64,000 bases of DNA from Candidatus Parcubacteria bacterium (GTDB lineage: Bacteria; Patescibacteriota; Patescibacteriia; Patescibacteriales; UBA12075). A model generated the notes under the pieces. The model saw only the letters and a program-made list of their open reading frames with translations, was not told where the DNA came from and did not search any database. The stretch covers positions 1,195,263 through 1,259,262 of the forward strand of contig CAWFCE010000002.1 in assembly GCA_963814275.1 (NCBI GenBank). Reading direction: 5' to 3'. Shown in pieces: positions 24,920 through 40,398 of this stretch (position 1 is the first letter of the stretch; every line of letters begins with the position of its first letter). Position numbers and translations under genes: made by a program.

Positions 24920-25780
24920 TTATAATAAATCCCCGATTTCGTCAAATTTATTTACTGCAACTTTAGTATAAATTTGAGTGGTTTCCAGGCGAGCATGGCC
25001 CAGCAAAGACTGAATATATCTTAAGTTTACACCATTTTCTAAGAGGTGGGTAGCAAAGCTGTGGCGCAATGAATGAGCAGAAACCCGTTTTTTGATCCCG
25101 GCCCGATTTGCGGCCTCGGTGACAATTTTCTGGATGGTCCGAACCGTCAATTTCCCGGCCGAACGGAAGCTTTCGAACAAGAATTCGGCCGGATCATAGC
25201 CGCGGATGTATTGCCCGATGTTTTCCAACACTGTCCCGGACACGATCGTCACCCGGTCCTTGTTGCCCTTGCCGGCCTGGATCCGGATTATTTTTCGGTC
25301 AAAGTCGATATCATAAACCCGCAAATTCACAAGTTCGCTCACCCGCATGCCGGTGGTATAAAGCACCTGGATGATGAGTTTATGTTTTATATTTCCTGCT
25401 ACCTCTATCATCCCAATGATTTCTTTTTTCGCCAGCACAACCGGTATCCTGGAGCCCATTTTGGGCCGCTTGATCCGGATTTCCCCGGCAAAAAAATTCC
25501 TCTTTAAAATTTGCGTGTAATAGAATTTAATGGCGTTGATCGCCAGGTTCAAGGTCGCCGGCGCCCGGCCGCTCACCAGAAGCCAATCCAGATAATCTTT
25601 TATATCCTGCGCGTTTAAATCATCGCTGAATTTGTTTGCAAATCTAAGCAATTCCTTGGTATAATAAACATAAGCCTTTACCGTTTTTTGGCTATAATTC
25701 CGTATTCTCAATTCCTGCTCCAAGTTATAAAACAAATCCCTTTTTAAAGTAGTAGAACGATTTAAATCTGATGGTAGCAT
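24920..25780 (-). CDS. tyrosine recombinase, integron-integrase-like N-terminus but Xer-sized (array 1 recombinase)
   Basis: 286 aa. SAM-like core-binding domain (IRNYSQKTVKAYVYY..., RIPVVLAKKEI); catalytic set TGMRVSE, GKGNKDR, HSLRHSFATH, LLGH, QIYTKV. It is divergent from and 78 bp away from the first GTTRRRY site. Confidence 0.85.
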   Translation of the reverse strand: MLPSDLNRSTTLKRDLFYNLEQELRIRNYSQKTVKAYVYYTKELLRFANKFSDDLNAQDIKDYLDWLLVSGRAPATLNLAINAIKFYYTQILKRNFFAGEIRIKRPKMGSRIPVVLAKKEIIGMIEVAGNIKHKLIIQVLYTTGMRVSELVNLRVYDIDFDRKIIRIQAGKGNKDRVTIVSGTVLENIGQYIRGYDPAEFLFESFRSAGKLTVRTIQKIVTEAANRAGIKKRVSAHSLRHSFATHLLENGVNLRYIQSLLGHARLETTQIYTKVAVNKFDEIGDLL

Positions 25781-25850
25781 ACCTTAATTAGCTAACATAT
25801 TTATATAATAATTTTAACTAATTTTTAACAAAAAATCAACAAGTTCAGAT

Positions 25851-25864
25851 ATAACCAGTTAGAT
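25851..25864 (+). other. attI-like site of array 1 (ATAACCAGTTAGAT)
   Basis: First GTTRRRY box (GTTAGAT, 25858-25864) after the recombinase gene. The ATAACCAGTT prefix is shared with array 2 (58890-58899). It is complementary to the R'' of cassette 1. Confidence 0.5.
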
Positions 25865-25902
25865 GAAATAATTAAATTATTTTCTGCTACGCAGAAAAAT
25901 TA

Positions 25903-27126
25903 TTGGGGCAAATTTATTTTTTTTATGAATATGAAGAAAAAATTCAAAAACCAACTCCTGAAAACAATCAAGAGTCACAAGCTGATATTTTACCTGAAAC
26001 ATACACCAAAGCCCGCACTCAAGAGATTAATCAGCAAATTAATTCATATCAGGGACCAAAAAACTCTGTAGATTTGGTATCCAAAACCAAAGAGATACAA
26101 GAAAACTACAAGCAATACATGGAAGAATCAGATGCTGAAGGAAGCCAAGAAACATTACAGCTTTTTCAAAAAAAAATGCAGGCAGAGATTGATTTCTATA
26201 AAAAAGAGTTTGATAAATTTAATGATCTGCAAAGGCTAGAAACCGTCTCTAATATATTAAAACCAGAAGATTTTCAGCTCTATGAAAAAATTCTAGGCAA
26301 CAAGGAAGGAAACACAGATGATTTATTTGATTCCCGCGGTAAAGTAATTCACGCCACAAATTCAACTGCACTAGATATAATATCTGATGTTAATACAATT
26401 TCTGGAGGAACAAGGCAGCTTGGACCTTCTTTCTCTGACGGAGATCACGACATCGCAATCACTTTTAATCTTGTGTGGGAAAAATTAAAAACGCCAGGAG
26501 GCATAGATAAAACCCACAAAAAAATTGACCTTGATGAATATCCACAATTCCCCAGTAAATATAATGAATTTGTTGATTGGGCAGTGCAAAGATTAAAAAA
26601 TGAATATGGCGAGGGAGAAAAGTTTGAAATGGAAAAAAACAAACTTCTTGCAAAAGCTGAAAAACATAACGAAGATAAATCAGTCCTCCACGATACTGAA
26701 GAACAGTACACTCAAGAATTAAAAGATATGGCATATGGCACGCTTAAACCGAAGTGGATAAAAGACGGGCTTAGCGAAGAAGAAGCTGAAAATAAAGTAA
26801 AAGAATATATTGAAAATCAAAACCATTTTAAAAACAGGCTAAAAAACCGACCTCAAAATGAAGTAGCCTTCCCTGTTACACTTGCATTTATTAAAAATGA
26901 GCTACCTGAACTTGTGCCTGAAGGTGGTGAAAGAGAATTTGAACTAAGAACAGAAGAAGAAATTAAGCTTGATAATGCCTCTACCATATTTGTTCCTGAA
27001 AAATATCTAAATAGCAGACTTGTTAGAAAAATAAATCAGGTTTATCCTAATATAGACATAAGAACAGAGGAGGAGTTGGAATTTGTAAGAATGAATAAAT
27101 TATTAAATAAAATAAATTTGCCCTAA
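25903..27126 (+). CDS. hypothetical Lys/Glu-rich protein (cassette 1)
   Basis: 407-aa ORF. Start uncertain: the TTG at 25903 lies inside the cassette inverted repeat and the first in-frame ATG is at 26119. Confidence 0.5.
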   Translation: MGQIYFFYEYEEKIQKPTPENNQESQADILPETYTKARTQEINQQINSYQGPKNSVDLVSKTKEIQENYKQYMEESDAEGSQETLQLFQKKMQAEIDFYKKEFDKFNDLQRLETVSNILKPEDFQLYEKILGNKEGNTDDLFDSRGKVIHATNSTALDIISDVNTISGGTRQLGPSFSDGDHDIAITFNLVWEKLKTPGGIDKTHKKIDLDEYPQFPSKYNEFVDWAVQRLKNEYGEGEKFEMEKNKLLAKAEKHNEDKSVLHDTEEQYTQELKDMAYGTLKPKWIKDGLSEEEAENKVKEYIENQNHFKNRLKNRPQNEVAFPVTLAFIKNELPELVPEGGEREFELRTEEEIKLDNASTIFVPEKYLNSRLVRKINQVYPNIDIRTEEELEFVRMNKLLNKINLP

Positions 27127-27162
27127 TAATAACTCGCTTCGCTCGTTGAATTTAATTACATC

Positions 27163-27254
27163 ATCTAACAGCGTGTATACGGTTCGCGCTTGGCTATCGC
27201 CAAATGCTCACCCAAATTTGCTTCGCAAACTTCGTATACACACGAACGTTAGGC
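27163..27254 (+). repeat. attC-like site 1
   Basis: R'' ATCTAAC (27163-69) is the reverse complement of the upstream GTTAGAT. It is followed by stem GTGTATACG / CGTATACAC, GGTTCG, hairpin H1 TTGGC-TATC-GCCAA, CACCCAAATT, hairpin TTTGC-TTCG-CAAA and ACTTCG. R' is GTTAGGC (27248-54). Confidence 0.75.
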
Positions 27255-27318
27255 GCAACAATAAAAAGCCTCTTTAATTAATTTAATAATTTTGGCAATT
27301 TATTTGCCCAATAAAACT

Positions 27319-27702
27319 ATGATAAAACCAGACCAAAATTTAGGAAAATTTTTTTCCAAAGAAGACCAATCCATTGAAAAGGAAACTGATTTAAAACAAC
27401 TTCAAGATTTCGCCGTATTATACCATGAAAAAAACATGCCTGAAGATCAGGAGAAAAAATTTATTTCATTGGCGCAAAAATACATAGACGAGAATCATGA
27501 TGGAACATACTATAATGAAGGCAATACAGATTATATTTATGTGCAACTTCCAAACGGACTATACTTAGAAGCTGATGCACATCTCAGAAGTAACACCTTT
27601 TATTTTTCCGGAGTACTATCAAAAGAAGATGCAGAAAAAAGAATAGACATGTTAGCAAAACAACGGGAAGAAGATATAAAAGCAGCTTTAGATAAAGAAT
27701 AA
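27319..27702 (+). CDS. hypothetical protein (cassette 2)
   Basis: ATG at 27319. The track start at 27292 reads through the cassette inverted repeat. 127 aa. Confidence 0.5.
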   Translation: MIKPDQNLGKFFSKEDQSIEKETDLKQLQDFAVLYHEKNMPEDQEKKFISLAQKYIDENHDGTYYNEGNTDYIYVQLPNGLYLEADAHLRSNTFYFSGVLSKEDAEKRIDMLAKQREEDIKAALDKE

Positions 27703-27842
27703 ACAAATTGCCAAAATTAATTTAAATAGCGGAGGAGGCTTTTTATTACTCGCTCCACTCCGTTCCGCGCCGCGCTGCGCTCTCACCCTCAAATTTTATG
27801 ATTATTAACTTTAATAAGGTATAAAATTTGAGTCTTCGGGGC

Positions 27843-27941
27843 GTATAACAACGCGATATACGGTTCGGCCCTCGGCCCGGGCCTCACCCAAATTGCAATC
27901 CCCTTCGGGTCTTGCAACTTCGTATATCGGTGATGTTGTGT
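27843..27941 (+). repeat. attC-like site 2
   Basis: Degenerate R'' GTATAAC; CGATATACGG / CGTATATCGG stems; GGTTCG; H1 GGCCC-TCG-GCCCGGGCC; CACCCAAATT; H2 GCAATCCCC-TTCG-GGTCTTGC; ACTTCG. R' is GTTGTGT (27935-41). Near-identical to site 14 except for H2. Preceded by an extra hairpin module at 27749-27842. Confidence 0.7.
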
Positions 27942-28006
27942 GAAATAATTAAATTATTTTTGCTCCGCAAAAATTGTTAGGGCAAATTTATTTAATCTTT
28001 AATCTT

Positions 28007-28456
28007 ATGAAACTCTATCATGGTTCACCAAATAGTTTTGATACAATTCGTAAAAGTCAGGCGCAAGCAGGTGATGATATTAAAGTGCCAGATGATGAAT
28101 TATTAAACGCGATTTATTTAACCCCAAATTATGAATTTGCTTTGGCCATCGCTTCGATGCCGGAAGGTGCTGCCAACATCGACAATGAAACCAAAACAAT
28201 CAAGTTTGAAAATCCTGAAGCATTCGACCCAGAAAAAGAAGTTTATATTTATGAAGTTGATAGTGAATTAATCCCGAAAGAAAATTTAAAAGAAGTTGAC
28301 GAGCTTCAAATTGCGATTTTAAACACCGATGAAATAAAGCCAACAATAAAACATGTTTGCAAAGCTGGTGATGTTGAGAAATATTATGAAATAAAAAAAG
28401 AAATTTTAGAGGCTAAAAACGAAACTAAAATATCACCTGAGTTCAAGATTAAATAA
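28007..28456 (+). CDS. hypothetical protein (cassette 3)
   Basis: ATG at 28007 (MKLYHGSPNSF). The track start at 27974 lies in the inverted repeat GGGCAAATTTATTT. Confidence 0.5.
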   Translation: MKLYHGSPNSFDTIRKSQAQAGDDIKVPDDELLNAIYLTPNYEFALAIASMPEGAANIDNETKTIKFENPEAFDPEKEVYIYEVDSELIPKENLKEVDELQIAILNTDEIKPTIKHVCKAGDVEKYYEIKKEILEAKNETKISPEFKIK

Positions 28457-28500
28457 ATTTGCCCTAACAACTCGCTATCGCTCGTTAATTTAATTACATC

Positions 28501-28627
28501 ACACAACACCGCGATAAACGGCTCGGTCTTTATTCAAAGACCTCGCGCAAATTTCTGTTTTCTCTTTTGTGATTAATTTAATAATGTAGAGAAGACAGAA
28601 ACTTCGCTTCATCGGGAAACATTATGT
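28501..28627 (+). repeat. attC-like site 3
   Basis: R'' ACACAAC is the reverse complement of the upstream GTTGTGT. CCGCGATAAACGG / CGCTTCATCGGG stems with conserved bulges; GCGCAAATT; long H2 with an ATTAATTTAATAAT loop; ACTTCG. R' is ATTATGT. Confidence 0.72.
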
Positions 28628-28686
28628 GAAATATGTTTTTACTCTTGGGCTAACGCCCCAACTTTTATATAATAAATTTAATTTTT

Positions 28687-29136
28687 ATGAATAACCTAAA
28701 ATATACGAAACCACTAAACATTTTTTTGCTTTTAGTAGCTATTGTCTTATTAGCTGGTTGCTCAAATAAATATTTTGAAAAAAATTTGGAGTGCGAGAAA
28801 CAAAAAGACATGCTTCAATACAACAGCGATAATTACAGCAAGGATACCAACACAATTATCAGTAAAATTCAAAAAGTATTTTACAGTCCAAAAGCAAAAA
28901 AATGTTTGTATGTTAGTGTCTCTGCAATCGATTTTAATTCGCCTAATAATATGACTGCTCTAACACAGAAAGACTATTCAGACGGAGCAAGATGGAAGCT
29001 CCGGACAATTTCAGGCGAATTAGTTGAAGATTTGCTAATTAACACTGAAGATGAAAAAATGGCTGTTTTTGGAGCAGAGCCACAACATACAGATTCATAT
29101 GAAGAATTTGAAAACCTTGTTAAAAAATGGGAATAA
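28687..29136 (+). CDS. putative lipoprotein (cassette 4)
   Basis: 149 aa. Signal peptide with lipobox LLAGC. Confidence 0.55.
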   Translation: MNNLKYTKPLNIFLLLVAIVLLAGCSNKYFEKNLECEKQKDMLQYNSDNYSKDTNTIISKIQKVFYSPKAKKCLYVSVSAIDFNSPNNMTALTQKDYSDGARWKLRTISGELVEDLLINTEDEKMAVFGAEPQHTDSYEEFENLVKKWE

Positions 29137-29200
29137 AAAATTAAATTTATTATATAAAAGCAATTCCGCATAAGCGGAATTAAGAGCAAAAACATACATC

Positions 29201-29657
29201 ACATAACAATGAATATGCGGTTCACAAATTAAAAATTATTCCTTATAATTATCAAAATATATGAAAAAAATATTAGTATTCGCGGTCGTTGTCTTGTTAA
29301 TAATTTTAGTGTTTAGCTGGTGGAATAAATCCCCAGAAGCTACATGGCAGGGTTCCTATTACAAACACGGACAACAAGAAAACGAAGTGTATGGACCAAT
29401 TTTTACTAATTTTGATGGCTGTAAAGCGTGGGCATTAGGAAAAATAGTTTATAACGACGACACAGCTAACTGTAGTAAAAATTGTCATGACGCTTTGGGA
29501 GACGGCACCCCTGTGTGTGAGGAAGTTGTTAGAAATTGGGCACCGCTTCCGGGCAGTTACACTTTTGATAATTATAAGGAATAATTTTTAATTTGTTCAC
29601 CCAAATTTTTGTTCCGCTTCGCTACACAAAAACTTCGCATATTCATAAACGTTAGGC
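29201..29657 (+). repeat. attC-like site 4, split by a nested cassette (29225-29595)
   Basis: R'' ACATAAC matches the upstream TTATGT. L'' AATGAATATGCG (29208-19) pairs with L' CGCATATTCAT (29636-46). The insert is flanked by GTTCAC (29220-25 and 29595-600) and sits immediately 5' of CCAAATT. R' is GTTAGGC (29651-57). Confidence 0.72.
29261..29584 (+). CDS. small secreted/TM-anchored Cys-containing protein (nested cassette)
   Basis: 107 aa with an N-terminal hydrophobic helix. The ORF is bracketed by a perfect 32-bp inverted repeat (29225-29256 / 29564-29595), whose right arm encodes the last 6 codons plus the stop. Confidence 0.55.
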   Translation: MKKILVFAVVVLLIILVFSWWNKSPEATWQGSYYKHGQQENEVYGPIFTNFDGCKAWALGKIVYNDDTANCSKNCHDALGDGTPVCEEVVRNWAPLPGSYTFDNYKE

Positions 29658-29689
29658 GAAATAAATTTTTCGCTACTAATTTTAAACAT

Positions 29690-30283
29690 ATGAAAAAATT
29701 CTTTTTGGGCTTCGCAAGCTCGTTATTAATCACAATTCCCCTGATCGCTTTTTCTGCTGATTCACTGTCTACAAAACTAAAAGGAAAAATTTTGTTAGCA
29801 GTAGAAGATAAGGGTAAAACTTATTATGTCAATGAAGATGGAAACAGATACAGAATTACTGTTTCTACTGCACAAAAAATATTTGAAAAACTTGCATTGG
29901 GCATTACAAATGAAAATTTAAGTCAAATTCCAGAAAGTAACGTAGGTATCGACCCAGAAGAAAACAGCACCCAGGAAAATTGTGCTGCGCAAGAATCAGA
30001 ATTAAATGATTGGAAGAATTTGAATACAAAAAATGAAAATACCCTCAGTTCTTGCCTTAACACCCTCACTAGCTTGAAGGATTCTTATGCAGACCTAATT
30101 AACAAATACGAAGATTGCATAGGTGAGTGCAATTATGGCCCTACAGTTGATGCACTCATCGCCCAAAATAACGAGCTTGCTAAACAAAATGATGAACTTT
30201 TAGCTATATCTATTTACTGGGAAAATAGTGCTAACACATGGAAGGCTTACGCATATGGTTGCACTGGCTATACTAGTCAATAA
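29690..30283 (+). CDS. secreted protein with KGKILLxVExxGxxYYV motif (cassette 6)
   Basis: ATG at 29690 (MKKFFLGFASSLLITIPLIAFS signal peptide). The track start at 29609 reads through attC-like site 4. Confidence 0.55.
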   Translation: MKKFFLGFASSLLITIPLIAFSADSLSTKLKGKILLAVEDKGKTYYVNEDGNRYRITVSTAQKIFEKLALGITNENLSQIPESNVGIDPEENSTQENCAAQESELNDWKNLNTKNENTLSSCLNTLTSLKDSYADLINKYEDCIGECNYGPTVDALIAQNNELAKQNDELLAISIYWENSANTWKAYAYGCTGYTSQ

Positions 30284-30336
30284 AATTAGTAGCGAAAAAT
30301 TTACTCAAGGGTTCGCTCCTTGAATCCGCTCACCTC

Positions 30337-31028
30337 GCCTAACGCGGCGTATCTGGCTCCGCTGGCCGTAAAATAATTAATTTTTTTATGACGATATTAA
30401 AGCCCAGAAATAAACCTGGCTCAAATAGTTTGCAAAACAGATTAGGTGGAGCAGTTTATAATTTTCTGGACAAAGCAAAAAATAATGATAAATTTTTGTT
30501 AGACTACGAAAGGATTAAAGGTAAATGTACCTCTGGCAATTGGCAAATTAATGATTATTCTCCAATACTTTTGCCATTGGTTAAATACTATGAAAATAGC
30601 TTGTGGTTTATTTGTGATAAATTAGGCATATTTAACCAGATTAATGACGGCAAAAAACCCCATAGCTTAAGGGCATTTTTCGACACAAAAGAAACAGAAA
30701 TAAATATTTGGCTTTCTTCAAAAATTAATGATAATCTTAAATATAAAAAATTGTCCAGAAAATTATTTTCAACAATCGACGATTATGTTCAGAGAAATGA
30801 AGTTGTTCATTGCAACGAAATCATATCCTTTCCCGATTTGAGCAATTACGATAGTTTGCTTACTAAATTAAAAGAATTAGTTGAACTTTTATTTAATCAC
30901 AATTTATTACAAAAAAATTAATTATTTTACTAGCTCCGCCCAAATTTCGTTTCCGCTTTTTGTTGGCGCATCCGCGCAATTATAACAAAAAGCTACAACG
31001 AAACTTCAGATACGCCGAAATGTTATCG
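30337..31028 (+). repeat. attC-like site 6, split by a nested cassette (30363-30932)
   Basis: R'' GCCTAAC is the reverse complement of the upstream GTTAGGC. L'' GGCGTATCTG (30346-55) pairs with L' CAGATACGCC (31007-16). The direct repeat GCTCCGC occurs at 30356-62 and 30933-39, the latter abutting CCAAATTT. R' is GTTATCG (31022-28). Confidence 0.72.
30388..30921 (+). CDS. hypothetical protein (nested cassette)
   Basis: 177-aa ORF flanked by the 20-bp inverted repeat GTAAAATAATTAATTTTTTT (30368-87 / 30911-30). Confidence 0.5.
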   Translation: MTILKPRNKPGSNSLQNRLGGAVYNFLDKAKNNDKFLLDYERIKGKCTSGNWQINDYSPILLPLVKYYENSLWFICDKLGIFNQINDGKKPHSLRAFFDTKETEINIWLSSKINDNLKYKKLSRKLFSTIDDYVQRNEVVHCNEIISFPDLSNYDSLLTKLKELVELLFNHNLLQKN

Positions 31029-31120
31029 GAAATAAATTTTTTATCTTGGTGGTAATTTCAAGGTTTGCGCGTTTTGCCAAGACGAAAATTTGATTTTTTA
31101 TTTTTTAAAGAGGGGTAATT

Positions 31121-31609
31121 ATGAAATTAACCAAAGAAACTACCTCGGAAAAACTTCTTGATTTTGGCAAACAGATTTTCGAGATTTTACAAAGACTAGA
31201 TACCTCACCAATCGTTTACGGTAGTTTGGCATATTTTTATCATACGAAAGATACTAGTTTCCCGATTAGAGACATTGATTTGCTTTTGCCAGAATCAAAT
31301 TTTTCAAAAATATCTGAAATGCTCGACAAAGAAAAAAATGTCACATACAATGTGATGCCATATCATAGTATAGAGGTATTCAGAGACGGTCTCGAAATCG
31401 ACATCGATTCTATCGAACATTTTTTAGATCCGAGATCTAGAGAATTTCATAAATCAACGATAAACGACCTCGATTTGAATATTTTAAATAAAGAGTCCTT
31501 GGCAAGCATTTACAAAGAAGCCTTGGATAACATGCCGCAAGAGAAAAAACTCGATGAAAAAAGAAATAAGTATCAAAAGAAGTTAGACAATCTCCAAAAA
31601 TTACTTTAA
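31121..31609 (+). CDS. hypothetical protein, possible minimal nucleotidyltransferase fold (cassette 8)
   Basis: 162 aa with SD AAGAGGGG. YGSLAYFYH...IRDIDLLLPE resembles the GS...DxD motif of Pol-beta-type nucleotidyltransferases; this is a weak call. Confidence 0.4.
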   Translation: MKLTKETTSEKLLDFGKQIFEILQRLDTSPIVYGSLAYFYHTKDTSFPIRDIDLLLPESNFSKISEMLDKEKNVTYNVMPYHSIEVFRDGLEIDIDSIEHFLDPRSREFHKSTINDLDLNILNKESLASIYKEALDNMPQEKKLDEKRNKYQKKLDNLQKLL

Positions 31610-31734
31610 TAAGGAGTTTTTATTTTTGGCCATTCACCCCTACCCCTCTGGCCAAAAATAAAAACAAAAAATCAAATTTTCTTTTAACGTAGAAAAGCTA
31701 TCGGCCAGTAGCATGGAGATAAAAAATTTACATC

Positions 31735-31921
31735 CGATAACACGGCACATGCGGTTCAGAAATTTCTCGTTTTTTAGACTTTTCAATTAAGGTATGAGAA
31801 ATTTCCTCTCCCAAATTGCGCTGACTATATGGAAAGTTTAGTGGTATAATCAAGTTAAGCGATAATCAATAATTTTATCAATAAATAACGGCGCAACTTC
31901 GCATGTGCCGATACGTTAAAT
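31735..31921 (+). repeat. attC-like site 8
   Basis: R'' CGATAAC is the reverse complement of the upstream GTTATCG. GGCACATGCGG / CGCATGTGCC stems; GGTTCA; H1 GAAATTTCTC...GAGAAATTTC; CTCTCCCAAATT; long H2; AACTTCG. R' is GTTAAAT (31915-21). Confidence 0.72.
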
Positions 31922-32016
31922 GAAATTGGCTAATTGTTTAGTGTACACCATAGATGACACTATAGTGTACACTAATGTGGTAAATCAAAGTTAATCGCGA
32001 GCCAACTTCACTTAAC
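31916..32016 (+). other. conserved ORF-less cassette, copy 1 of 3
   Basis: GAAATTGGCT...TTAATCGCGAGCCAACTTC-ACTTAAC with internal palindrome TAGTGTACAC-N16-GTGTACACTA. Homologous copies are at 59441-59542 and 61297-61396. Confidence 0.6.
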
Positions 32017-32534
32017 AGGTGATATGCGGTTACAATTAAGGAAATATAGAATATAATTTTTACTAAAAAAATCCCCACGAACTGAATCGCAGGGACACGT
32101 TGGTTTTAGTCCATCTTTGGAAATTACACAATAAGGATTTTTGCTCTGCCTTCGACATTGTGAAAACCGATAAACACAGTATTGCGTCCGGTTTCCTTTA
32201 AACGTTTCAATGCTAACACGGCAGCTTCGGTACCAACGGTTTTTTCAAAATCTGATATGAGCTTTATGGCATCATCAATCGGATAATCATCAACTTCCAC
32301 TCCAACCATTGGTCCGTGCTTTTCTGGGTCATATTCTGATATCGGCGCTGTCTTTAATTCCATATTCCCTCCTTTTTATGAATTGTTGCTAGAAACTTAG
32401 CACGTGAATGCCAAAAACGCAAGTAAAAATTATTTTCTATATTTCTTTAATCTCCACCCAAATTCCTGCCCCTCTTTTTAGGATAAATTAATAATGAGTC
32501 GGGGCAGAAACTTCGCATATCAAAAATGTTAGGC
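32010..32534 (+). repeat. attC-like site 9, split by a nested reverse-oriented cassette (32034-32451)
   Basis: R'' ACTTAAC. L'' GGTGATATGCG (32018-28) pairs with L' CGCATATCA (32513-21). ACCCAAATT and the H2 stem CCTGCCCC...GGGGCAG follow. R' is GTTAGGC (32528-34). This is a paralog of the array 2 site at 59536-60215. Confidence 0.7.
32124..32363 (-). CDS. hypothetical 79-aa protein (reverse-oriented nested cassette)
   Basis: Strong SD (AGGAGGG) 7 nt upstream of the ATG on the minus strand. The cassette is bounded by a roughly 29-bp inverted repeat (32034-63 / 32423-51). Confidence 0.55.
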   Translation of the reverse strand: MELKTAPISEYDPEKHGPMVGVEVDDYPIDDAIKLISDFEKTVGTEAAVLALKRLKETGRNTVFIGFHNVEGRAKILIV

Positions 32535-32559
32535 GAAATTTATTTTCAATTTAAAATTT

Positions 32560-33396
32560 ATGAGTTCGGATACTATAACCAATTACTACGATTACACCCT
32601 GCCATTTTATAGATTTTTTTATCACGGCAAGAGCAATGCCGTTCATTATGGCTTTTGGAACAATGGAGTTAAAAATCACCAGGAAGCTTTATTGAACGTA
32701 AATAAATTTTTGGCTGACACGGTTAAGATAAAATCAGATGATAGTGTTTTAGACGCGGGTTGCGGAATTGGAGGTAGCGCGATTTGGCTGGCACAGAATT
32801 ACAATGTTCGAGTTGATGGCATAACCATAAGTGAAAAACAGTTAGAGGAAGCCAAAAATTTATCTACCAAATATAATGTTGACCATATCGTAAATTTTTA
32901 TCAAAGAAATTTTTTAAATACCAAATTTAACGATAGTTCCTATAACATAGTTTTGGCGATTGAAAGCGTGTGCCATGCCGAGAACAAAAAGGACTTTATC
33001 AAAGAAGCGTACCGGGTACTTAAAAACGGCGGACGATTGATTGTTGATGATGGATTTCTTTTGCGAAGTCCGAAAAATAAACACGAGCAAAAAGATTTAA
33101 ATGCATTTTTAGAGGGCATGGCACTCTCCAATCTTGCTTTTGAAACAGACTTTAAAAAATCTCTTGAAGATGTTGGATTTAAAAATATAAAAATTTACGA
33201 CAAGGTCAACGAAACGATTCCTTCTTCAAAAAAAATCTATAAAATGTCAATTTTTAGTTATCCTTTATCTATAATTCTCGAAAAACTAAAACTTACACCA
33301 CCATTATTAACCAAAAATAATTTAGCGGGAATAACACAATACAGGATAATTAAAAATGGGATAATGGGACACCGAGTATTTTACGCTGAAAAATAA
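32560..33396 (+). CDS. class I SAM-dependent methyltransferase (cassette 11)
   Basis: 278 aa. Motif I VLDAGCGIGGSAIWLA; post-I and motif II/III spacing (LKNGGRLIVDD). Confidence 0.8.
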   Translation: MSSDTITNYYDYTLPFYRFFYHGKSNAVHYGFWNNGVKNHQEALLNVNKFLADTVKIKSDDSVLDAGCGIGGSAIWLAQNYNVRVDGITISEKQLEEAKNLSTKYNVDHIVNFYQRNFLNTKFNDSSYNIVLAIESVCHAENKKDFIKEAYRVLKNGGRLIVDDGFLLRSPKNKHEQKDLNAFLEGMALSNLAFETDFKKSLEDVGFKNIKIYDKVNETIPSSKKIYKMSIFSYPLSIILEKLKLTPPLLTKNNLAGITQYRIIKNGIMGHRVFYAEK

Positions 33397-33419
33397 ATTT
33401 TAAATTGAAAATAAACATC

Positions 33420-33573
33420 GCCTAACACCGCGATAAGCGGCTCCAGAAAAGTTCCTTAATTAAATATAATAATGAGTAAACTTTTCTTCCGACCCAAATT
33501 TCTATTTTTCTTTTCTTATTAATTTTAATATTGAAAAAAAATAGAAACTTCGCTTCATCGGGAAACGTTGTGT
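33420..33573 (+). repeat. attC-like site 11
   Basis: R'' GCCTAAC is the reverse complement of the upstream GTTAGGC. CCGCGATAAGCGG / CGCTTCATCGGG stems; GGCTCC; H1 33445-87; CCCAAATT 33493-500; H2 33501-45; AACTTCG 33546-52. R' is GTTGTGT (33567-73). Confidence 0.75.
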
Positions 33574-33639
33574 GAAATAATGTCCTTAAACAAAATATTT
33601 TAGGTGGTGCTAATTCAAAAGAAAAAGGAGGGAGGTATT

Positions 33640-33852
33640 ATGGTAATCATCAATAAACTTGGCAGATTATTAAAAGACCATTCAGAAACTTTTATTCTTT
33701 TTTTAGCGGGTATAATATTAACCCTATACGGGATTTTGAAAGCATTGCCTTTTATTGATTGGGCGCAGAAAGGTCAATTTTCGAGTGAGTTTACTATTTT
33801 ACTTGGAATACTTCTGCTATTCTTTGGACTTCGTTCATTATTAAACAAATAA
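33640..33852 (+). CDS. small two-TM membrane protein (cassette 12)
   Basis: ATG at 33640 preceded by AAGGAGGGAGG. 70 aa. Confidence 0.55.
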   Translation: MVIINKLGRLLKDHSETFILFLAGIILTLYGILKALPFIDWAQKGQFSSEFTILLGILLLFFGLRSLLNK

Positions 33853-33955
33853 ATTGATTATTCTCGCGGGGAACACTTTCCCCGCACCACCTAAAATATT
33901 TTGTTAGCTTCTATTCAGAAGCTGTTTGCTCAATCGCAAACAAGGACATTACATC

Positions 33956-34073
33956 ACACAACAACGCGACAAGCGATTCGGTCTTTATTCAAAGACCTCA
34001 CTCAAATTTTTGAAATGATTATTAACTTTAATAATGAATTTCAAAAACTTCGCTTCGTCGGTATACGTTATAT
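33956..34073 (+). repeat. attC-like site 12
   Basis: R'' ACACAAC is the reverse complement of the upstream GTTGTGT. H1 GGTCTTTATTCAAAGACC; CACTCAAATT; H2 TTTGAAATG...ATTTCAAA; ACTTCG. R' is GTTATAT (34067-73). Confidence 0.72.
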
Positions 34074-34090
34074 GAAATTAAAAATTCCCT

Positions 34091-34603
34091 ATGAGCATTA
34101 AACAAGATTGGAAAAGTCCCAAAGTTGATATAAAAGATAGTCCGATTGGAGGAAAAGGCATTTTTGCTAATTCCAATATTAAACGAGGTGAAAAAATCAT
34201 CGTCTGGGGAGGAAATTATACTGATGCTGTTGGTGCGCAAAAAGCAAAAGAAAAAGGTATGCTAGTATTTCAATGGGACGATGACCTTTATAGCTACGAA
34301 GATAGAGGGAAAGACGATGGGTACTACATAAACCATTCCTGTAACCCTAATCTATGGATGACAGATGCATACACTTTAACAGCTATGAGAGATATTAATG
34401 CTGGTGAAGAAATTACAATAGATTATGCGTTGTTCGAGGAAGATGATTATATTTCAAAATGGAAATGCAACTGCGGTTCATCGTTATGCCGCGGCCGGGT
34501 TACAGGAGAGGATTGGAAAAGCATAGTGCTACAAAAACGCTATAAAGGACATTTTTCACCTCTCTTAAATAAACGGATCCAGAAATTACAAGATAATAAA
34601 TAA
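34091..34603 (+). CDS. SET domain protein (cassette 13)
   Basis: 170 aa. YINHSCNPN and EEITIDY SET motifs plus the post-SET CNCGSSLCRG. Confidence 0.8.
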   Translation: MSIKQDWKSPKVDIKDSPIGGKGIFANSNIKRGEKIIVWGGNYTDAVGAQKAKEKGMLVFQWDDDLYSYEDRGKDDGYYINHSCNPNLWMTDAYTLTAMRDINAGEEITIDYALFEEDDYISKWKCNCGSSLCRGRVTGEDWKSIVLQKRYKGHFSPLLNKRIQKLQDNK

Positions 34604-34627
34604 TTCACGGCGGGAATTTTTAACATC

Positions 34628-34772
34628 ATATAACACCGCGATAAGCGGTTCCAGAAAATTTCCTTTATTAATGATAATAATGAATAAAATTTTCTTCCAC
34701 CCAAATTTTGCAAATGAATATTAATTTTAATAAGGTATTTGCAAAACTTCGCTTCATCGGGAAACGTTAGGC
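34628..34772 (+). repeat. attC-like site 13
   Basis: R'' ATATAAC is the reverse complement of the upstream GTTATAT. Same family as sites 3, 11 and 17. R' is GTTAGGC (34766-72). Confidence 0.75.
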
Positions 34773-34800
34773 GAAATAATTTATCAATAATTAAATTTCT

Positions 34801-35150
34801 ATGGGAATAGACAACAAGCCTTTTACGGCAGAGCAACTCCAGGAACAGATTAATTTTTTTGGAATTGATTGCACTGTAAAAAAACACCTGGAGAAAAATA
34901 TATATTTTTTAGTTGTGACTCTATGGAAGACGCGGAATCAATAGTAGTAAGTTTTTGGGGAAAAAGAGATCAATCAGTTGTTGACGGCCTTAACCGAGGC
35001 ATGCTAAAACCTAGTCATGAAATTACTACAGGTGCCAGAACGGAAATCACTGAAATCGGAGGCAAAGCAACATTAATTATTAGTGAAAACGGTGCTCCAC
35101 TTTCGGAAAAAACAATTTCAGCATTAGAAGATGGAGGATTTACAATTTAA
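34801..35150 (+). pseudogene. hypothetical cassette gene with a frame break at an A7 run (cassette 14)
   Basis: The ATG at 34801 opens MGIDNKPFTAEQLQEQINFFGIDCTVKK. After the A7 run (about 34877-34883) the reading continues in another frame as TPGEKYIFFSCDSMEDAES... to 35150; one extra A would fuse the two frames. Alternatively an intact ORF could start at ATG 34923. Confidence 0.4.
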
Positions 35151-35232
35151 TTATTGATAAATTACTCAAGGGGGCGCTGCGCTTCAGGTCTGCCTTTTAC
35201 AATTAATAATATTGAGAGCAGACCTGACCCTC

Positions 35233-35331
35233 GCCTAACAACGCGATATGCGGTTCGGCCCTCGGCTCGGGCCTCACCCAAATTTTCTTTCACTTCGTTC
35301 AAGAAAACTTCGTATATCGGTGATGTTGTAC
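35233..35331 (+). repeat. attC-like site 14
   Basis: R'' GCCTAAC is the reverse complement of the upstream GTTAGGC. Near-identical to site 2 apart from H2. R' is GTTGTAC (35325-31). Preceded by a hairpin module at 35165-35232. Confidence 0.75.
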
Positions 35332-35359
35332 GAAATAAAAATTTAATTATTTTGCTACC

Positions 35360-36079
35360 ATGAAATTCAAGGAAGCATACAAACACATAAACCCCACCGA
35401 ATACATAAATATTTTTTCCAACCCTCAATGGTATTTGGAAATACAAGCTGAACTAAAGGATTTTTTTTATGATTATGACGGCAATAAGGATAACAAATCG
35501 CAAGAATGGCTTGAAAAAAGGAAAGAATTTGTAAAAATGGTTTGTGAACTTTTAGAAGCTGGCAAAGTTGCTCTTGGCGACTCTGGTATAAACTGGGATA
35601 AAGACCGTTTACCCATAGATACAATTGTTATACATCATACGAGCACGCCATCAGACACCCCCGTTATAGCCATTGATGCACTGGGATTGATTCGTTTGTA
35701 TGCACCGAATTACAGCAAAAAAAATGAGGAGCAATTTGGCCAGCCAATATGGTCAAACCATTTTTGCAAAAATCAACAAACATTCGTTGCTTATCATTAC
35801 ATAATCAGACAGGATGGTTCTTTTGAACACATATTACAAGATGACCAAATAGGTTGGCATTGTGGCAATTGGGATTATAACTGCAGAAGTATTGCGATTT
35901 GTTTTCTTGGTGATTTAAAAGAAAAAAAACCGACTGAAAAAGCACTTCAAACGGCGAATGAAATCATAAAAAAATATCCAAATTGTAATATATTCGGTCA
36001 TAGAGAAATTAAACCCACAACAACTTGCCCAGGTAATCTGTTTCTAGGGAAAGAGGGTTGGAAAACGACATATTTCTAA
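35360..36079 (+). CDS. N-acetylmuramoyl-L-alanine amidase (amidase_2/PGRP fold) (cassette 15)
   Basis: 239 aa. IVIHHTSTP...AYHYIIRQDG...GWHCGNWDYNCRSIAICFLG...GHREI...TCPG. Confidence 0.75.
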   Translation: MKFKEAYKHINPTEYINIFSNPQWYLEIQAELKDFFYDYDGNKDNKSQEWLEKRKEFVKMVCELLEAGKVALGDSGINWDKDRLPIDTIVIHHTSTPSDTPVIAIDALGLIRLYAPNYSKKNEEQFGQPIWSNHFCKNQQTFVAYHYIIRQDGSFEHILQDDQIGWHCGNWDYNCRSIAICFLGDLKEKKPTEKALQTANEIIKKYPNCNIFGHREIKPTTTCPGNLFLGKEGWKTTYF

Positions 36080-36107
36080 GAACGCAAAATAATTAAATTT
36101 TTACATC

Positions 36108-36186
36108 GTACAACACTGAATATCTGGTTCCGTTATCGCTCCACCCAAATTGCTGACGCAACTTCAGATATTCAGAAACGTTATCG
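36108..36186 (+). repeat. attC-like site 15 (shortest, 79 bp)
   Basis: R'' GTACAAC is the reverse complement of the upstream GTTGTAC. CTGAATATCTGG / CAGATATTCAG stems; GGTTCC; CCACCCAAATT; hairpin GCTGACGCAA; CTTCAG. R' is GTTATCG (36180-86). Confidence 0.75.
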
Positions 36187-36253
36187 GAAATATTGCTCAT
36201 TAAAATATTTTTTTGTAAGAGGGCTTGAAATTAACTATCAAAGGAGGATTGTA

Positions 36254-36544
36254 ATGAAGAAAAAATCTTTACACAACGTTGGAGATTTGGTCGTATTTAA
36301 TGAAACCAAAGAATTTGGGAACAAAAATGACCGTATATTTCACATCCACGCCATTCGATATGGCAAATGCACTGGAATTCCTAAAAAACAATATTGGTTC
36401 GCTGGTTTCCTGCTGGAAATTGGAAAACACGAGAGTGAGGGTTTACCTCAAATTCCAGTTTTTGCAACAACCTTAACCAACGCTTCCGAAAATCAATTGA
36501 GTTCATTAGAGCATCTACAATGCCGTTTCAACCCATGGAAATAA
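36254..36544 (+). CDS. hypothetical protein (cassette 16)
   Basis: 96 aa. SD AAAGGAGGA upstream of the ATG. Confidence 0.5.
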   Translation: MKKKSLHNVGDLVVFNETKEFGNKNDRIFHIHAIRYGKCTGIPKKQYWFAGFLLEIGKHESEGLPQIPVFATTLTNASENQLSSLEHLQCRFNPWK

Positions 36545-36651
36545 TCTACGCCCTTTGTCTTCGCGGGAATAAACAATATTCCCGCCCTCTTTTCAAAAAA
36601 ATATTTTTGCTGGCTTATCAGCCAACGGCTATCACTAATGAGCAATATATC

Positions 36652-36759
36652 CGATAACAGCACGCTATCCGGTTCGCGCTTGCCCTGTCGGGCAAATGCT
36701 CACCCAAATCCCGACTCCGATTCACTACATCGGGACTTCGGATATCGGCATATGTTATG
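36652..36759 (+). repeat. attC-like site 16
   Basis: R'' CGATAAC is the reverse complement of the upstream GTTATCG. Family shared with sites 18, 23 and 24 (GCACG.TATCCGG ... CCGATATC). H1 stem TTGCCC/GGGCAA. R' is GTTATGT (36753-59). Confidence 0.75.
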
Positions 36760-36815
36760 TGAAATTTAAGTTGTGGCCTTAATTAAATTTAATATATTCA
36801 ATAACTTCTCTCTTA

Positions 36816-37208
36816 ATGATAAAACAAGTTTCATTGTTAATATTATTTGATAAAGATAAGCGCATTTTATTGCAACATCGTTCCGAAGATCAAGAAGGAT
36901 TACCTGGCTATTGGGCTTTTTTTGGTGGTCATATTGAAAACGGCGAAACACCAGAGCAGGCATTACTGAGAGAGTCTGAGGAGGAATTAGAGTATATGCC
37001 GGAAAACCCCCGCCTAGTTATGACTCAGGATTTTATGCACGACAATATACGACATAGAAAATACGTTTATTTAGAGGAATATAATAACAGCAAACTTGTT
37101 CAACACGAGGGTCAAGCTATGGGATGGTACCATTTAGGCGAAATACAAAAATTAAAAATGGTAGACCACGACCGAGAAGTTATTGATTATATTAAAAACA
37201 AATATTGA
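36816..37208 (+). CDS. NUDIX hydrolase (cassette 17; duplicated at 60271-60663)
   Basis: 130 aa. Nudix box [23 protein letters not shown]. Protein sequence identical to the array 2 copy. Confidence 0.85.
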
Positions 37209-37227
37209 GTGCCACAACTTAAACATC

Positions 37228-37433
37228 ACATAACACCGCGATAAGCGGCTCCAGAAAATTTTCTTTATTAATATTAAACAGGAATAAAATTTTCTACCGG
37301 CCCAAATTTCATTTCAGTTTTCTGATGAACGTTCAATAAACGTTCATCGCTCCACGATTGTCTGATATTGATAATAATCGATTCTAAAACGGAAAACTGA
37401 AGTGAAACTTCGCTTCATCGGGAAATGTTAAAT
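37228..37433 (+). repeat. attC-like site 17 (206 bp)
   Basis: R'' ACATAAC is the reverse complement of the upstream GTTATGT. Long branched H2. R' is GTTAAAT (37427-33). Duplicated with the NUDIX cassette in array 2. Confidence 0.72.
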
Positions 37434-37497
37434 GAAATATCTAAAACAAATTCCCTATCGGGAATTTTATCTGCAAGTTTATAATTAATTTTCTTAT

Positions 37498-38160
37498 ATG
37501 AAAAACAAATTTTTTTTACTATTAATCTTAGTCATTATCTTAGCTGGGTGCAATAAACAAAACACAAGTATTAATTTAACCCCAGATAATCAAACTAAAA
37601 ATATTTCAAACTCAACAAACGATACTAATACATCAATACAGGAAAACGTAGAAGCAAAAAACAATATTCCCGAAGAAAAACCAACAGAAATTAAGCAAGA
37701 AGACGATATAAAAATACAAAATATTAATAATAAAAAAAGTTATCAAAATTTAACAACTGGGTTTAGCTTAGAATTTCCAGAGGCATTAATATTCAGGAAT
37801 AACGCTTTTTACACCGAGGTAAACTGGGACGGTATTGTAAATAAAAAAACTGACCATATGTACGTTCCTGAATTTACTGTCCGTTTTGCATCTGATGTGT
37901 CATTAGATGAATTTATTTATAATTCGATTAACCCAAATTATAAAAATCATTTTAATTCAAACAAAAACAAAATCAAAGAACAAAAAACAATAGGAAATAA
38001 TAAATTCTTTATGATAAACAGTAAAAATTTTGATAGCAATGGTTGTAGTTACTATATAGAAAATAATAAAAATATAATGAGATTAAGTACCGCATATAAC
38101 TGCGGTGAAAACGAATTAATAGAAAACGTTTTGATATCTATTAAAACAACAGAAAATTAA
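37498..38160 (+). CDS. putative lipoprotein (cassette 18)
   Basis: 220 aa. Signal peptide with lipobox ILAGC; Asn/Lys-rich. Confidence 0.55.
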   Translation: MKNKFFLLLILVIILAGCNKQNTSINLTPDNQTKNISNSTNDTNTSIQENVEAKNNIPEEKPTEIKQEDDIKIQNINNKKSYQNLTTGFSLEFPEALIFRNNAFYTEVNWDGIVNKKTDHMYVPEFTVRFASDVSLDEFIYNSINPNYKNHFNSNKNKIKEQKTIGNNKFFMINSKNFDSNGCSYYIENNKNIMRLSTAYNCGENELIENVLISIKTTEN

Positions 38161-38212
38161 TTATAAACTTGCAGATTATTTTTGCTATCGCAAAAATGGT
38201 TTTAGATACAGC

Positions 38213-38318
38213 ACATAACAGCACGATATCCGGTTCGCGCTTTCCTTCGGAAAATGCTCACGCAAATCCCGACTCCGTTTCACTGCGTCGGGACTTCGGA
38301 TATCGGCATACGTTAGGC
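38213..38318 (+). repeat. attC-like site 18
   Basis: R'' ACATAAC has 2 mismatches to the upstream GTTAAAT. Paralog of site 16 with a compensatory H1 stem TTTCC/GGAAA. R' is GTTAGGC (38312-18). Confidence 0.68.
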
Positions 38319-38347
38319 GAAATTTAAAATTTATCTTTATCTCAATT

Positions 38348-38638
38348 ATGTCATTAAACAAACTAAAACATTTTAAAAAACCTTGGGTAATTGGTCTTAT
38401 TGTTGGTATAATCCTAGCCATCGGAAATATATTACTTGCCGGAATTCCAGGGATTATCTTATTTGAAAACACTTTAGATCCGGTACAATCAATTTCTGGT
38501 TGTGCAGGAGAAGACTGTTGGGGTCCATCTGCACTTTATGGTAGTGTAATTTTCTTAATTGTCGGGTTTTTATTTGGTTACCTTGTTGGAATATTTATAA
38601 ATAGATCCTTGAGCAAAGTAGATAAAGATAAATTTTAA
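38348..38638 (+). CDS. small membrane protein (cassette 19)
   Basis: 96 aa, 3 TM helices. The 3' end (GATAAAGATAAATTTTAA) is part of the cassette inverted repeat. Confidence 0.5.
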   Translation: MSLNKLKHFKKPWVIGLIVGIILAIGNILLAGIPGIILFENTLDPVQSISGCAGEDCWGPSALYGSVIFLIVGFLFGYLVGIFINRSLSKVDKDKF

Positions 38639-38712
38639 ACTCAAGGGGGCGCTGCGCTTTCGTCCCGCCCTTTGAATAATATAATTTAATATTGTAGGCG
38701 TGACGAACCCTC

Positions 38713-38811
38713 GCCTAACACCGAGTATACGGAAAAAGGCTCAACTCGCCTTTTTCCCAAATTCGCCTTCGTTTCACTCCGGCGAACTTCGTATACTCGG
38801 AAACGTTATCG
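38713..38811 (+). repeat. attC-like site 19
   Basis: R'' GCCTAAC is the reverse complement of the upstream GTTAGGC. CCGAGTATACGG / CGTATACTCGG stems; H1 AAAAAGGC...GCCTTTTT; CCCAAATT. R' is GTTATCG (38805-11). Preceded by a hairpin module at 38640-38712. Confidence 0.75.
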
Positions 38812-38845
38812 GAAATTACACTTTTTAAAAAATAATTTTATTATT

Positions 38846-39511: not shown

Positions 39512-39589
39512 TAATAAAATTATTTCTTTATTTGGGCTATTCGCCCAAATGTCCTTCCCTATCGGTCAGGACTAAAAAGTGTAACTGTC

Positions 39590-39726
39590 CGATAACAGCG
39601 TATATCAGGTTCCGACTCCCCTGTCGGTGAGCCTCCACCCAAATTCGGTCTCCATAATTTGCTGGTGCTCCGCACAATTTTAGAAAATTACTACGACTGT
39701 ACTTCTAATATACGCATATGTTAGAT
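39590..39726 (+). repeat. attC-like site 20
   Basis: R'' CGATAAC is the reverse complement of the upstream GTTATCG. GGTTCC; CCACCCAAATT. R' is GTTAGAT (39720-26). Confidence 0.7.
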
Positions 39727-40325: not shown

Positions 40326-40398
40326 GAAATAAATAAATGCTTTTCGGCTAACGCCGAAAAATTATTCGGGCAAATATTTATTATTCAATACTAAAAGA

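Follow-up and report, generated by a model that had tools for sequence, protein, structure and literature searches.

What does it mean that nearly the same flanking DNA, present once in each of two gene arrays, encloses unrelated genes at the same internal position? The question arises in a 64,000-nt stretch of contig CAWFCE010000002.1 (hereafter the window), where a cassette of array 1 (named here s7N) holds a reverse-oriented open reading frame (ORF) of 79 aa and its paralogue in array 2 (t2N) a forward gene for a NUDIX hydrolase. An earlier note on this DNA had taken the inner position for an independent cargo slot, delimited by inverted repeats (IRs) of its own. The answer considered probable here is that the region is an integron-like cassette, in which the shell is the folded recombination site and the filling is a gene lying inside that site instead of upstream of it. 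Specifically, s7N and t2N are two cassettes whose chassis, consisting of U leader, central helix, junction box and hairpin 2, belong to a single family, and the 'nested' IRs of 29-36 nt correspond, judging from sequence comparison, to the stem of hairpin 1 of the site. The features of s7N, of t2N and of a third U-type cassette (t5N) are the following.

31916-32528, + strand: complete cassette s7N, from the TT of the upstream GTTAAAT to the G of GTTAGGC, with leader hairpin, split site and reverse gene (site map)
31922-32009, +: 'U' leader of s7N, an ORF-less hairpin GAAATTGGCT...AGCCAACTTC (five homologous copies aligned and folded)
32010-32016, +: R'' box ACTTAAC, fitting RYYYAAC and complementary to R'
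32017-32028, +: 5' half of the central helix, AGGTGATATGCG, with 9 of 10 positions paired to 32514-32523 on the far side of the gene (all 10 in t2N)
32029-32033, +: linker GTTAC at the position of the conserved GGYTC box (site comparison), unpaired in the predicted fold
32035-32064, +: left arm of hairpin 1, 30-nt IR, 93% complementary (IR search), paired in the minimum free energy (MFE) and centroid structures
32071-32096, -: terminator-like hairpin with T-run of the reverse gene (terminator scan)
32124-32363, -: 79-aa orphan ORF in the loop of hairpin 1 (ORF listing)
32422-32451, +: right arm of hairpin 1, partner of 32035-32064
32452-32464, +: junction box CTCCACCCAAATT, conserved in nearly all sites
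32465-32507, +: hairpin 2, CCTGCCCCTC...GAGTCGGGGCAG, with the common ATTAATAATG-type motif in its loop and a stem sequence common only to the array-2 paralogue
32509-32527, +: AACTTC box and 3' half of the central helix, GCATATCAAAAAT (site map)
32528-32534, +: R' box GTTAGGC, followed by the conserved GAAAT; putative crossover at G|TT
59441-60209, +: cassette t2N, paralogue of s7N (alignment, fold, IR search, site map)
59447-59535, +: U leader of t2N
59536-59542, +: R'' box of t2N
59543-59554, +: central region of t2N, followed by the linker ACTGC
59554-59589 and 60104-60139, +: hairpin-1 arms of t2N, 36-nt IR, 92% (IR search)
59588-60121, +: 177-aa NUDIX hydrolase ORF in the loop of hairpin 1 (Pfam NUDIX, E = 6.8e-21)
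60134-60145, +: junction box TCCGTCCAAATT
60146-60189, +: hairpin 2 of t2N
60190-60208, +: AACTTC box and central' half of t2N
60209-60215, +: R' box of t2N
61297-61769, +: t5N, third U-type cassette, central sequence AATGTATATACG
61421-61444 and 61665-61688: hairpin-1 stem of t5N, 24 bp, perfect
61464-61622: 52-aa ORF of t5N

Paralogous shells and unrelated interiors

Both loci agree in sequence and coordinates with their earlier description, and their sites span 525 nt (s7N) and 680 nt (t2N), gene included. Pairwise global alignment and BLAST pair the left shell (31909-32028 with 59434-59554) at 79% identity over 121 nt, the final ~47 nt being nearly identical in the pairwise alignment, and the right shell (32451-32542 with 60133-60224) at 88% identity over 93 nt, while the interiors cannot be aligned. 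The comparison that the earlier note had called for maps both breakpoints to the nucleotide: the left one falls directly after ...GATATGCG (32028 / 59554) and the right one at the start of CTCCACCCAAATT or TCCGTCCAAATT (32452 / 60134). Identity across R'' and the central region reaches 0.95, and the 5-nt linker that follows is unequal, GTTAC in s7N and ACTGC in t2N. Among the 325 pairs formed by the 26 mapped sites, this pair ranks second in right-shell identity (0.87, against a median of 0.51 and a 95th percentile of 0.71), the first rank being held by a true duplicate cassette; furthermore, the hairpin-2 stem sequence and the central helix are private to s7N and t2N in the same comparison. 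Since a right-shell identity of 0.87 stands against a median of 0.51, the likeness reflects specific paralogy and is not confined to motifs shared by all sites. Homologous shells with non-homologous fillings at one position, namely a minus-strand 79-aa ORF and a forward NUDIX ORF, are thus borne out as first described; conversely, the ORF-less segment, once taken for a cassette of its own, is the leader hairpin of the same cassette.

The 79-aa ORF has no Pfam or NCBIfam match and no homologue besides itself among 5.8 billion proteins, and its AlphaFold2 model, computed without an alignment, is unusable (predicted local distance difference test score 54.7); Pfam, NCBIfam and Rfam return nothing for the small ORFs or the leader. 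The NUDIX protein has homologues at 60-69% identity, several of them from named records of Patescibacteria or of the candidate phyla radiation (CPR). The contigs compared with the window bear L-numbers: L002 is a strain variant from the same European Nucleotide Archive sample, L004 a related organism with a recombinase 74% identical, L091 the Parcubacteria assembly GCA_030631305.1, and L101 another metagenome, with a recombinase 64% identical. The NUDIX homologue is a conventional cassette in L005 and L007 and lies in an apparently non-cassette context in L006. Because the right arm of the t2N IR is made of C-terminal codons that recur in two of the three homologues examined (L005 and L006), the left arm complements what is apparently the gene's own end.

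The fate of the IR when the gene changes can be followed in three comparisons. The t5N cassette agrees with a cassette of L004 in the end of the leader, in the central helix and in hairpin 2; its perfect 24-bp stem of hairpin 1 is also the same, save for a compensatory change of A:T to G:C at one pair, and no alignment can be made between the ORFs, of 52 aa in t5N and 59 aa in L004. Likewise, t2N is homologous to a cassette of L101 (n2) in R'', the central helix, the linker, the outer hairpin-1 stem ((G/A)AAAAGTAAT...ATYACTTTTC), the junction box and the central'-R' segment, and n2 holds an unrelated 97-aa ORF where t2N holds the NUDIX gene. Lastly, n2 and the adjacent n1 of L101 have identical leader hairpins, R'' boxes, central helices and linkers around unrelated ORFs. 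Because the stem stays with the chassis while the gene changes, the IRs belong to the site, and the variable part consists of the ORF and a short leader. Gene-less sites carry the same kind of AT-rich hairpin 1. Each of the two IRs (30 and 36 nt) is single-copy in the window according to the IR search; their description as unrelated needs amending, in that the array-2 IR has a homologue in the hairpin-1 stem of n2, around a different gene. In total, the chassis superfamily carries at least seven unrelated genes in four organisms, and the proposed survey for a third filling or an empty version yields five further fillings and, among the loci examined, no empty copy of the chassis. The further fillings are:

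52-aa ORF, t5N
59-aa ORF, L004
137-aa ORF, 2-thiouracil-desulfurase-like, L090
81-aa and 97-aa ORFs, L101

A shared site family with a different gene is not by itself evidence for a special inner slot, as the earlier note had it, because conventional cassettes show the same pattern, which is the norm in these arrays. Identities between conventional chassis with different genes reach 0.87 (s13/s15), 0.81 (s3/t4) and 0.81 (s9/t6). Moreover, the conventional cassettes at L091 4050-3340 and L101 6062-5530 (both reverse complement) are ~96% identical, by our own count, over a 75-nt leader, the trailer and the whole site, around unrelated ORFs of 131 and 71 aa.

A recombination site predicted to fold around a gene

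From all the intergenic regions read, the site consensus is (A)CATC, R'' RYYYAAC, a central segment of 12-13 nt, GGYTC, hairpin 1, CTCCRCCCAAATT, hairpin 2 (whose loop is often ATTAATTTTAATAATG-like), AACTTC, central', R' GTTRRRY and GAAAT, of which CCCAAATT, AACTTC, GTTRRRY and GAAAT are common to all sites. The central and central' halves pair with each other and form, with the R boxes, an outer stem. All 26 sites mapped in the window have the RYYYAAC and GTTRRRY boxes; 20 of them span 79-206 nt, and in the remaining six a long AT-rich hairpin-1 stem holds a whole ORF in its loop, extending the R''-R' span to 386-692 nt:

29201-29657: gene-in-site
30337-31028: gene-in-site
32010-32534: gene-in-site, s7N
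39757-40325: gene-in-site
59536-60215: gene-in-site, t2N
61390-61775: gene-in-site, t5N

In the conventional cassettes, which are the majority, the gene is found after the upstream R' and before the R'' of the same cassette. Nearly all of these genes (window 25800-43300 and 58780-62400) are bracketed by an IR of 20-52 nt running from the upstream R' and GAAAT... to ...ACATC and the own R'' and ending at the start and stop codons; two examples are:

32527-32561 / 33393-33427: gene-bracketing IR, 35 nt, 94%
35324-35355 / 36084-36115: gene-bracketing IR, 32 nt, 94%

In the gene-in-site cassettes, the space between R' and R'' is filled by an ORF-less U leader or, in two cassettes of the window, by a second gene, and the window counts 20 cassettes with a gene between R' and R'', four with a gene in hairpin 1 only and two with both. 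Every cassette has two hairpin positions, R'-R'' and hairpin 1, each of which is either empty or gene-bearing. The fraction with a gene in hairpin 1 is about a fifth to a third of cassettes (~3/9 in L101). Some of the genes inside sites in other contigs are reverse-oriented and have their own terminator; further examples are:

L101 7130-6050 (reverse complement): gene-in-site cassette
L101 4140-3400 (reverse complement): gene-in-site cassette
L002 1109-607 (reverse complement): gene-in-site cassette
L091 ~620-1 (reverse complement): gene-in-site cassette

The predicted single-stranded DNA fold of both loci is a three-way junction of outer stem, hairpin 1 and hairpin 2, in the MFE as well as in the centroid structure, with z-scores of -4.3 and -6.5 against shuffled sequences; the outer stem and hairpin 2 are retained, as is the IR stem around the gene. 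Bulges are predicted in the central' half, which is 1-2 nt longer than the central half, and at the TT of AACTTC. The two halves of the central helix find each other across the gene: in 11 gene-in-site cassettes from six contigs (including the window, L002, L004, L090 and L101), nine have a 10-bp helix paired throughout by Watson-Crick rules and two pair 9/10. Eight different helix sequences occur among the 11, and the mean cross-pairing between sites is 6.1/10. These counts use only cases checked by eye, since automatic detection of split sites also picked up false cases where a central-helix family recurs. Within the chassis family of s7N and t2N the changes are compensatory (...ATGCG/CGCAT..., ...ATGAG/CTCAT..., ...ATGTG/CACAT...), and the split sites appear, on this pattern of covariation, to be under selection.

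The U leader, of ~88 nt, is a hairpin whose outer stem extends the R'/R'' pairing and which fills the position of the conventional gene. Across the five copies that were aligned and folded, the outer stem does not vary, and compensatory changes occur in the inner hairpin; the 3' end of the leader is found in six distinct cassettes (window 31922, 59447 and ~61303; L002, L004 and L090) and is always followed by a gene-in-site cassette. Its core (31930-31990) contains two copies of the palindrome GTGTACAC around CATAG...CTATAG. Between the window and L002 this core is ~80% identical, whereas the other ~540 nt of the cassette differ at one base, and the divergent core represents either recombination confined to this patch or an operator-like element that evolves fast. 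Moreover, U subtypes are reassorted relative to the shells between the window and L004. The pattern of leader plus shell has no match in the genome-contig collection; a scan of metagenome contigs for ACTTAACAGGTGATATGCG gives one chance match, inside an unrelated coding sequence, and a scan of viral contigs for GCCAACTTCACTTAAC eight matches, all within unrelated coding sequence.

Many loops of hairpins 1 and 2 (e.g., 34706-34742, 62293-62329 and 33440-33480) carry a conserved ATTAATTTTAATAA(T/G)G-like motif, with a TTGCAA- or TTGAAA-like sequence in the left arm about 17 nt from it. The pair may function as an outward promoter for the next cassette, and the U leader may likewise carry a promoter, although the consensus promoter scan of both loci is not significant, its result not rising above the shuffled expectation.

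Cassette movement and the competing explanations

The strain variant L002 carries 31915-32527, that is, leader, shell and 79-aa gene together, among different neighbours, and its left junction falls exactly at G|TTAAAT. The single base that differs outside the U core makes the hairpin-1 stem of L002 perfect. Along this contig, homology to the first cassette is followed by different cassettes; because these include Fic-domain and nucleotidyltransferase-like cassettes (L002 2332-4260 and 1411-2058) that the window lacks, close strains from a single sample differ in what their arrays contain. The relocation seen in the comparison of the window with L002 is of the whole cassette only, and no movement of the inner unit alone is seen there. 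What is supported of the proposed cargo slot is the presence of unrelated genes inside a specifically paralogous shell; the idea of fillings as independent mobile elements with their own ends is not supported. A conventional NUDIX cassette, with an ORF of 130 aa, occurs in both arrays (36732-37440 and 60188-60895, 97% identical), the array-2 copy lying directly 3' of t2N.

By analogy with integrons, and with the support of the strain comparison, a cassette would move whole through recombinase-mediated exchange at the G|TT of R'. The ORF, with a short 5' leader, would be placed or replaced in a hairpin loop already present in a template cassette, and this loading would be the same step as cassette genesis in classical integrons. 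The data fit such loading of ORFs into the hairpin loops of a template cassette. A wider proposal, put forward tentatively and with more doubt than confidence, is that the loops of the leader hairpin and of hairpin 1 are true gene-loading slots, that chassis lineages persist across CPR organisms while genes are exchanged, and that the arrays preserve a footprint of cassette genesis under an Xer-like recombinase without the IntI domain.

Several points weigh against the integron-like cassette with its gene inside the site. The IntI-specific domain of classical integrons contacts extrahelical bases of attC, and the recombinase here is devoid of this domain, so the analogy with integron chemistry may not hold. 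The linker of t2N (ACTGC) is without the GTT of the GGYTC linker, and this copy could be defective. The L002 contig ends at 32527, and only the left border of the relocated cassette is seen; the mosaicism of the U core in the same contig shows that cassette parts recombine independently; and the direct repeats of 6-8 nt around hairpin 1 could be marks of site-specific insertion. The host lineage, probably Patescibacteria, is assigned through the nearest named relatives of the recombinase and the NUDIX protein and through the size of the contig (1.27 Mb). Finally, we infer folding as single strands in vivo, the action of the recombinase on these sites and the position of the crossover.

The direct repeats also speak for a nested mobile element, in which the IR-bounded segment would insert into, and excise from, a specific point of the site, driven either by the array recombinase, for which the GGYTC / GYTCCRC box would serve as a second core, or by a transposase acting in trans on the terminal IRs. 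They flank the IR-gene-IR unit in several gene-in-site cassettes as GTTCAC...GTTCAC (29222 / 29595), as GCTCCGC...GCTCCGC (s5N and s18N) and as GGCTCCGCC / GGCTCTGCC (t5N); once circularised, they would yield arm-core-arm sites like those of tyrosine recombinases, and homologous shells with non-homologous interiors at the same position, as well as a NUDIX gene that elsewhere is a conventional cassette with a similar leader, are what such an element would leave. However, the same boxes flank hairpin 1 in gene-less sites and are therefore site consensus rather than insertion scars, the IR is kept with the chassis while the gene changes, and the multi-copy IR family expected of a miniature inverted-repeat transposable element (MITE) is missing. 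With no transposase found, no separate movement of the inner unit seen and no empty target site among the loci examined, this explanation is unlikely. A different objection would make the likeness of the shells uninformative about how the genes arrived: independent cassettes could have had their non-coding parts homogenised by homologous recombination or gene conversion between arrays. Site families common to many cassettes with unrelated genes, the mosaic of L002, where 100% identity stands beside a U core of ~80%, and the reassorted U subtypes of the window and L004 speak for such concerted evolution; yet it needs separate conversions on both sides of each gene, stopping exactly at non-homologous gene borders, it must extend to the same chassis with different genes across organisms and samples (L090, L101, L004), and it gives no account of why this chassis always has a gene inside, which makes it quite unlikely as well. 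As for chance or generic motif likeness, with the IRs as AT-rich accidents, it could appeal to the motifs common to all sites and to the 33% GC of the arrays, but it is refuted to near certainty by the right-shell ranking, the private hairpin-2 stem and central helix, the fold z-scores and a gene-spanning helix that pairs 10/10 in independent sites.

Four rearrangements were rejected as sources of the order to be explained (leader hairpin, R'', central, gene, junction box, hairpin 2, central', R'), none of them reproducing it without additional ad hoc steps: a normal cassette circularly permuted by a cut at a different box, a complete cassette inserted at the GGYTC box with a subsequent deletion, two neighbouring cassettes fused through a pair of deletions, and integration in inverted orientation through the top strand.

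Arrays, recombinases and known systems

The two arrays, at 33% GC against 45-50% in the flanks, lie within 34 kb and have from 6 to at least 20 repeated sites each. Each begins beside a divergent tyrosine recombinase gene, and the two paralogous recombinases are 40% identical to each other:

24920-25780, - strand: array-1 tyrosine recombinase, 286 aa, XerA-like, without the IntI insertion (Pfam Phage_integrase and Phage_int_SAM_4)
25858-25864, +: candidate attI core of array 1, GTTAGAT, followed by GAAAT (read from the sequence)
57970-58782, -: array-2 tyrosine recombinase, 270 aa (Pfam, NCBIfam)
58897-58903, +: candidate attI core of array 2, GTTGTAC (read from the sequence)

Both enzymes match NCBIfam NF040815 (XerA-type, 'site-specific tyrosine recombinase/integron integrase'), only the array-1 enzyme scoring above the cutoff (249 bits). 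Against the integron-integrase model TIGR02249, each gives a match split into two pieces that stays below the cutoff (one at 208.8 bits, with the cutoff at 265). The recombinase aligns in one stretch with the XerA structure 4A8E (E = 1.5e-46), whereas the alignment with VchIntIA (2A3V) is broken in two. Because 31 query residues (183-213) stand where IntI4 has 73 (172-244), the IntI-specific additional domain is absent. The closest named relatives come from Falkowbacteria, Parcubacteria and other Patescibacteria, and the host of the arrays is, by this kinship, probably a bacterium of the Patescibacteria (CPR). Three homologues at 63-64% identity and a fourth (P0002) at 74% are likewise divergent beside arrays; this layout is present in L004, L089, L090, L091 and L101, and the same site family with an attI-like sequence was read in L004, L090, L091 and L101. 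The attI-like ...CAGATATnACnnGTTRRRYGAAAT adjoins the recombinase gene in L004, L091 and L090, and array 1 has a similar one. A search of genome contigs with the recombinase alignment gave, among the matches listed, only proteins at most 45% identical, from many phyla, none of them with this site type. Xer-like recombinases without the IntI insertion thus stand beside arrays in at least six contigs, mostly of probable Patescibacteria, and this looks like an undescribed class of integron.

Within array 1, the distal end (41700-43250) has degenerate sites with the R' boxes GTTCAGC and GTTCAGA and without a clear R'' partner, and a reverse 160-aa ORF (42272-42754) precedes a histidine-kinase gene; this is probably a decaying end of the array. 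At 28621-28627, ATTATGT stands in place of GTTRRRY as R', which may be an inactivated site that fuses two cassettes.

The closest parallel is with sedentary chromosomal integrons, such as the Vibrio cholerae superintegron with its VCR-type (Vibrio cholerae repeat) attC sites: in both, a recombinase gene is divergent from a long array of small, mostly promoterless genes in the same direction, the sites are imperfect palindromes with RYYYAAC and GTTRRRY boxes, here 26 and foldable, cassette borders fall at G|TT (the right border of the L002 copy being unseen), the sites of one host lineage resemble each other more than their associated genes do, cassette order varies by strain, and reverse cassettes have their own promoter and terminator. 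The arrays described here differ in a recombinase without the IntI-specific additional domain, in a central helix of 12-13 bp with GGYTC, CTCCRCCCAAATT, AACTTC and GAAAT boxes and two inner hairpins, in gene-bracketing IRs of 20-52 nt continuous with the R boxes, and in a sizeable minority of cassettes (6/26 sites) that enclose the gene in place of a compact attC downstream of it. Classical attC sites measure 57-141 nt. The IntegronFinder paper puts attC sites well under 200 nt, it and the archaeal-integron paper require or describe an IntI domain and compact attC sites, and the additional domain is placed around patch III (Messier and Roy 2001, as cited in PMC9668308). Hairpins 1 and 2 correspond in position to the apical portion of the folded site that varies in sequence, the variable terminal structure (VTS), whose length variation and branching are known in classical attC sites; the literature searched contains no description of a whole gene with promoter or ribosome-binding site and terminator inside the VTS.

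The XerA and 'Cand' Xer-related recombinases are alike in sequence and domain architecture, as the 4A8E alignment and the NF040815 score indicate, and Smyshlyaev et al. 2021 (PMC8138268) grouped enzymes of candidate phyla with Xer and suggested that such class-specific recombinases may compensate for Xer function. Here, however, the two paralogues and the four homologues (63-74%) flank arrays with an attI-like site, a context of integron type and not of chromosome-dimer resolution; in place of the single, array-free recombinase of Xer / dif systems, which acts at one dif-type site with two inverted arms of ~11 bp around a spacer of 6-8 bp, there are two paralogues, each with an array, dif-type sites having been considered within the window only. 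Foreign DNA inside attC at a defined position is also known from the IS1111-attC insertion sequences (ISs) and the group IIC-attC introns, but these code for a transposase or a reverse transcriptase and possess characteristic ends, whereas the fillings here are single ordinary or orphan genes: no transposase or reverse transcriptase domain is found in either, the 79-aa ORF being without Pfam match and the 177-aa ORF matching only NUDIX, and no group II intron or other Rfam RNA family in the window. Nor does the resemblance to a MITE or IS go far, with IRs that are single-copy in the window, flanking repeats that are site consensus and no empty shell among the loci examined. The full-text literature searched, with incomplete coverage that leaves room for a prior description, contains none of integrons in Patescibacteria or of genes inside attC sites.

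The s7N/t2N pair is one instance of a general property of these arrays, namely a conserved non-coding chassis around unrelated genes, with one lineage that has the gene inside the site. The recombinase serving these integron-type arrays, apparently across CPR bacteria, would be an Xer-like enzyme that lacks the domain by which IntI is defined, and programs that require this domain would at best report such arrays as integrase-less clusters of attC sites; the compact attC model of IntegronFinder is expected to miss sites of 386-692 nt. What counts as an attC changes once a site can accommodate an entire gene within its fold, as the sites of one chassis lineage invariably do. The origin of cassettes is a long-standing open question. 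Because the chassis is conserved on either side of the gene, the points at which it gives way to the captured gene can be located to the nucleotide in numerous independent cassettes, inside-site and conventional alike, and this gives a handle for testing models of cassette genesis.

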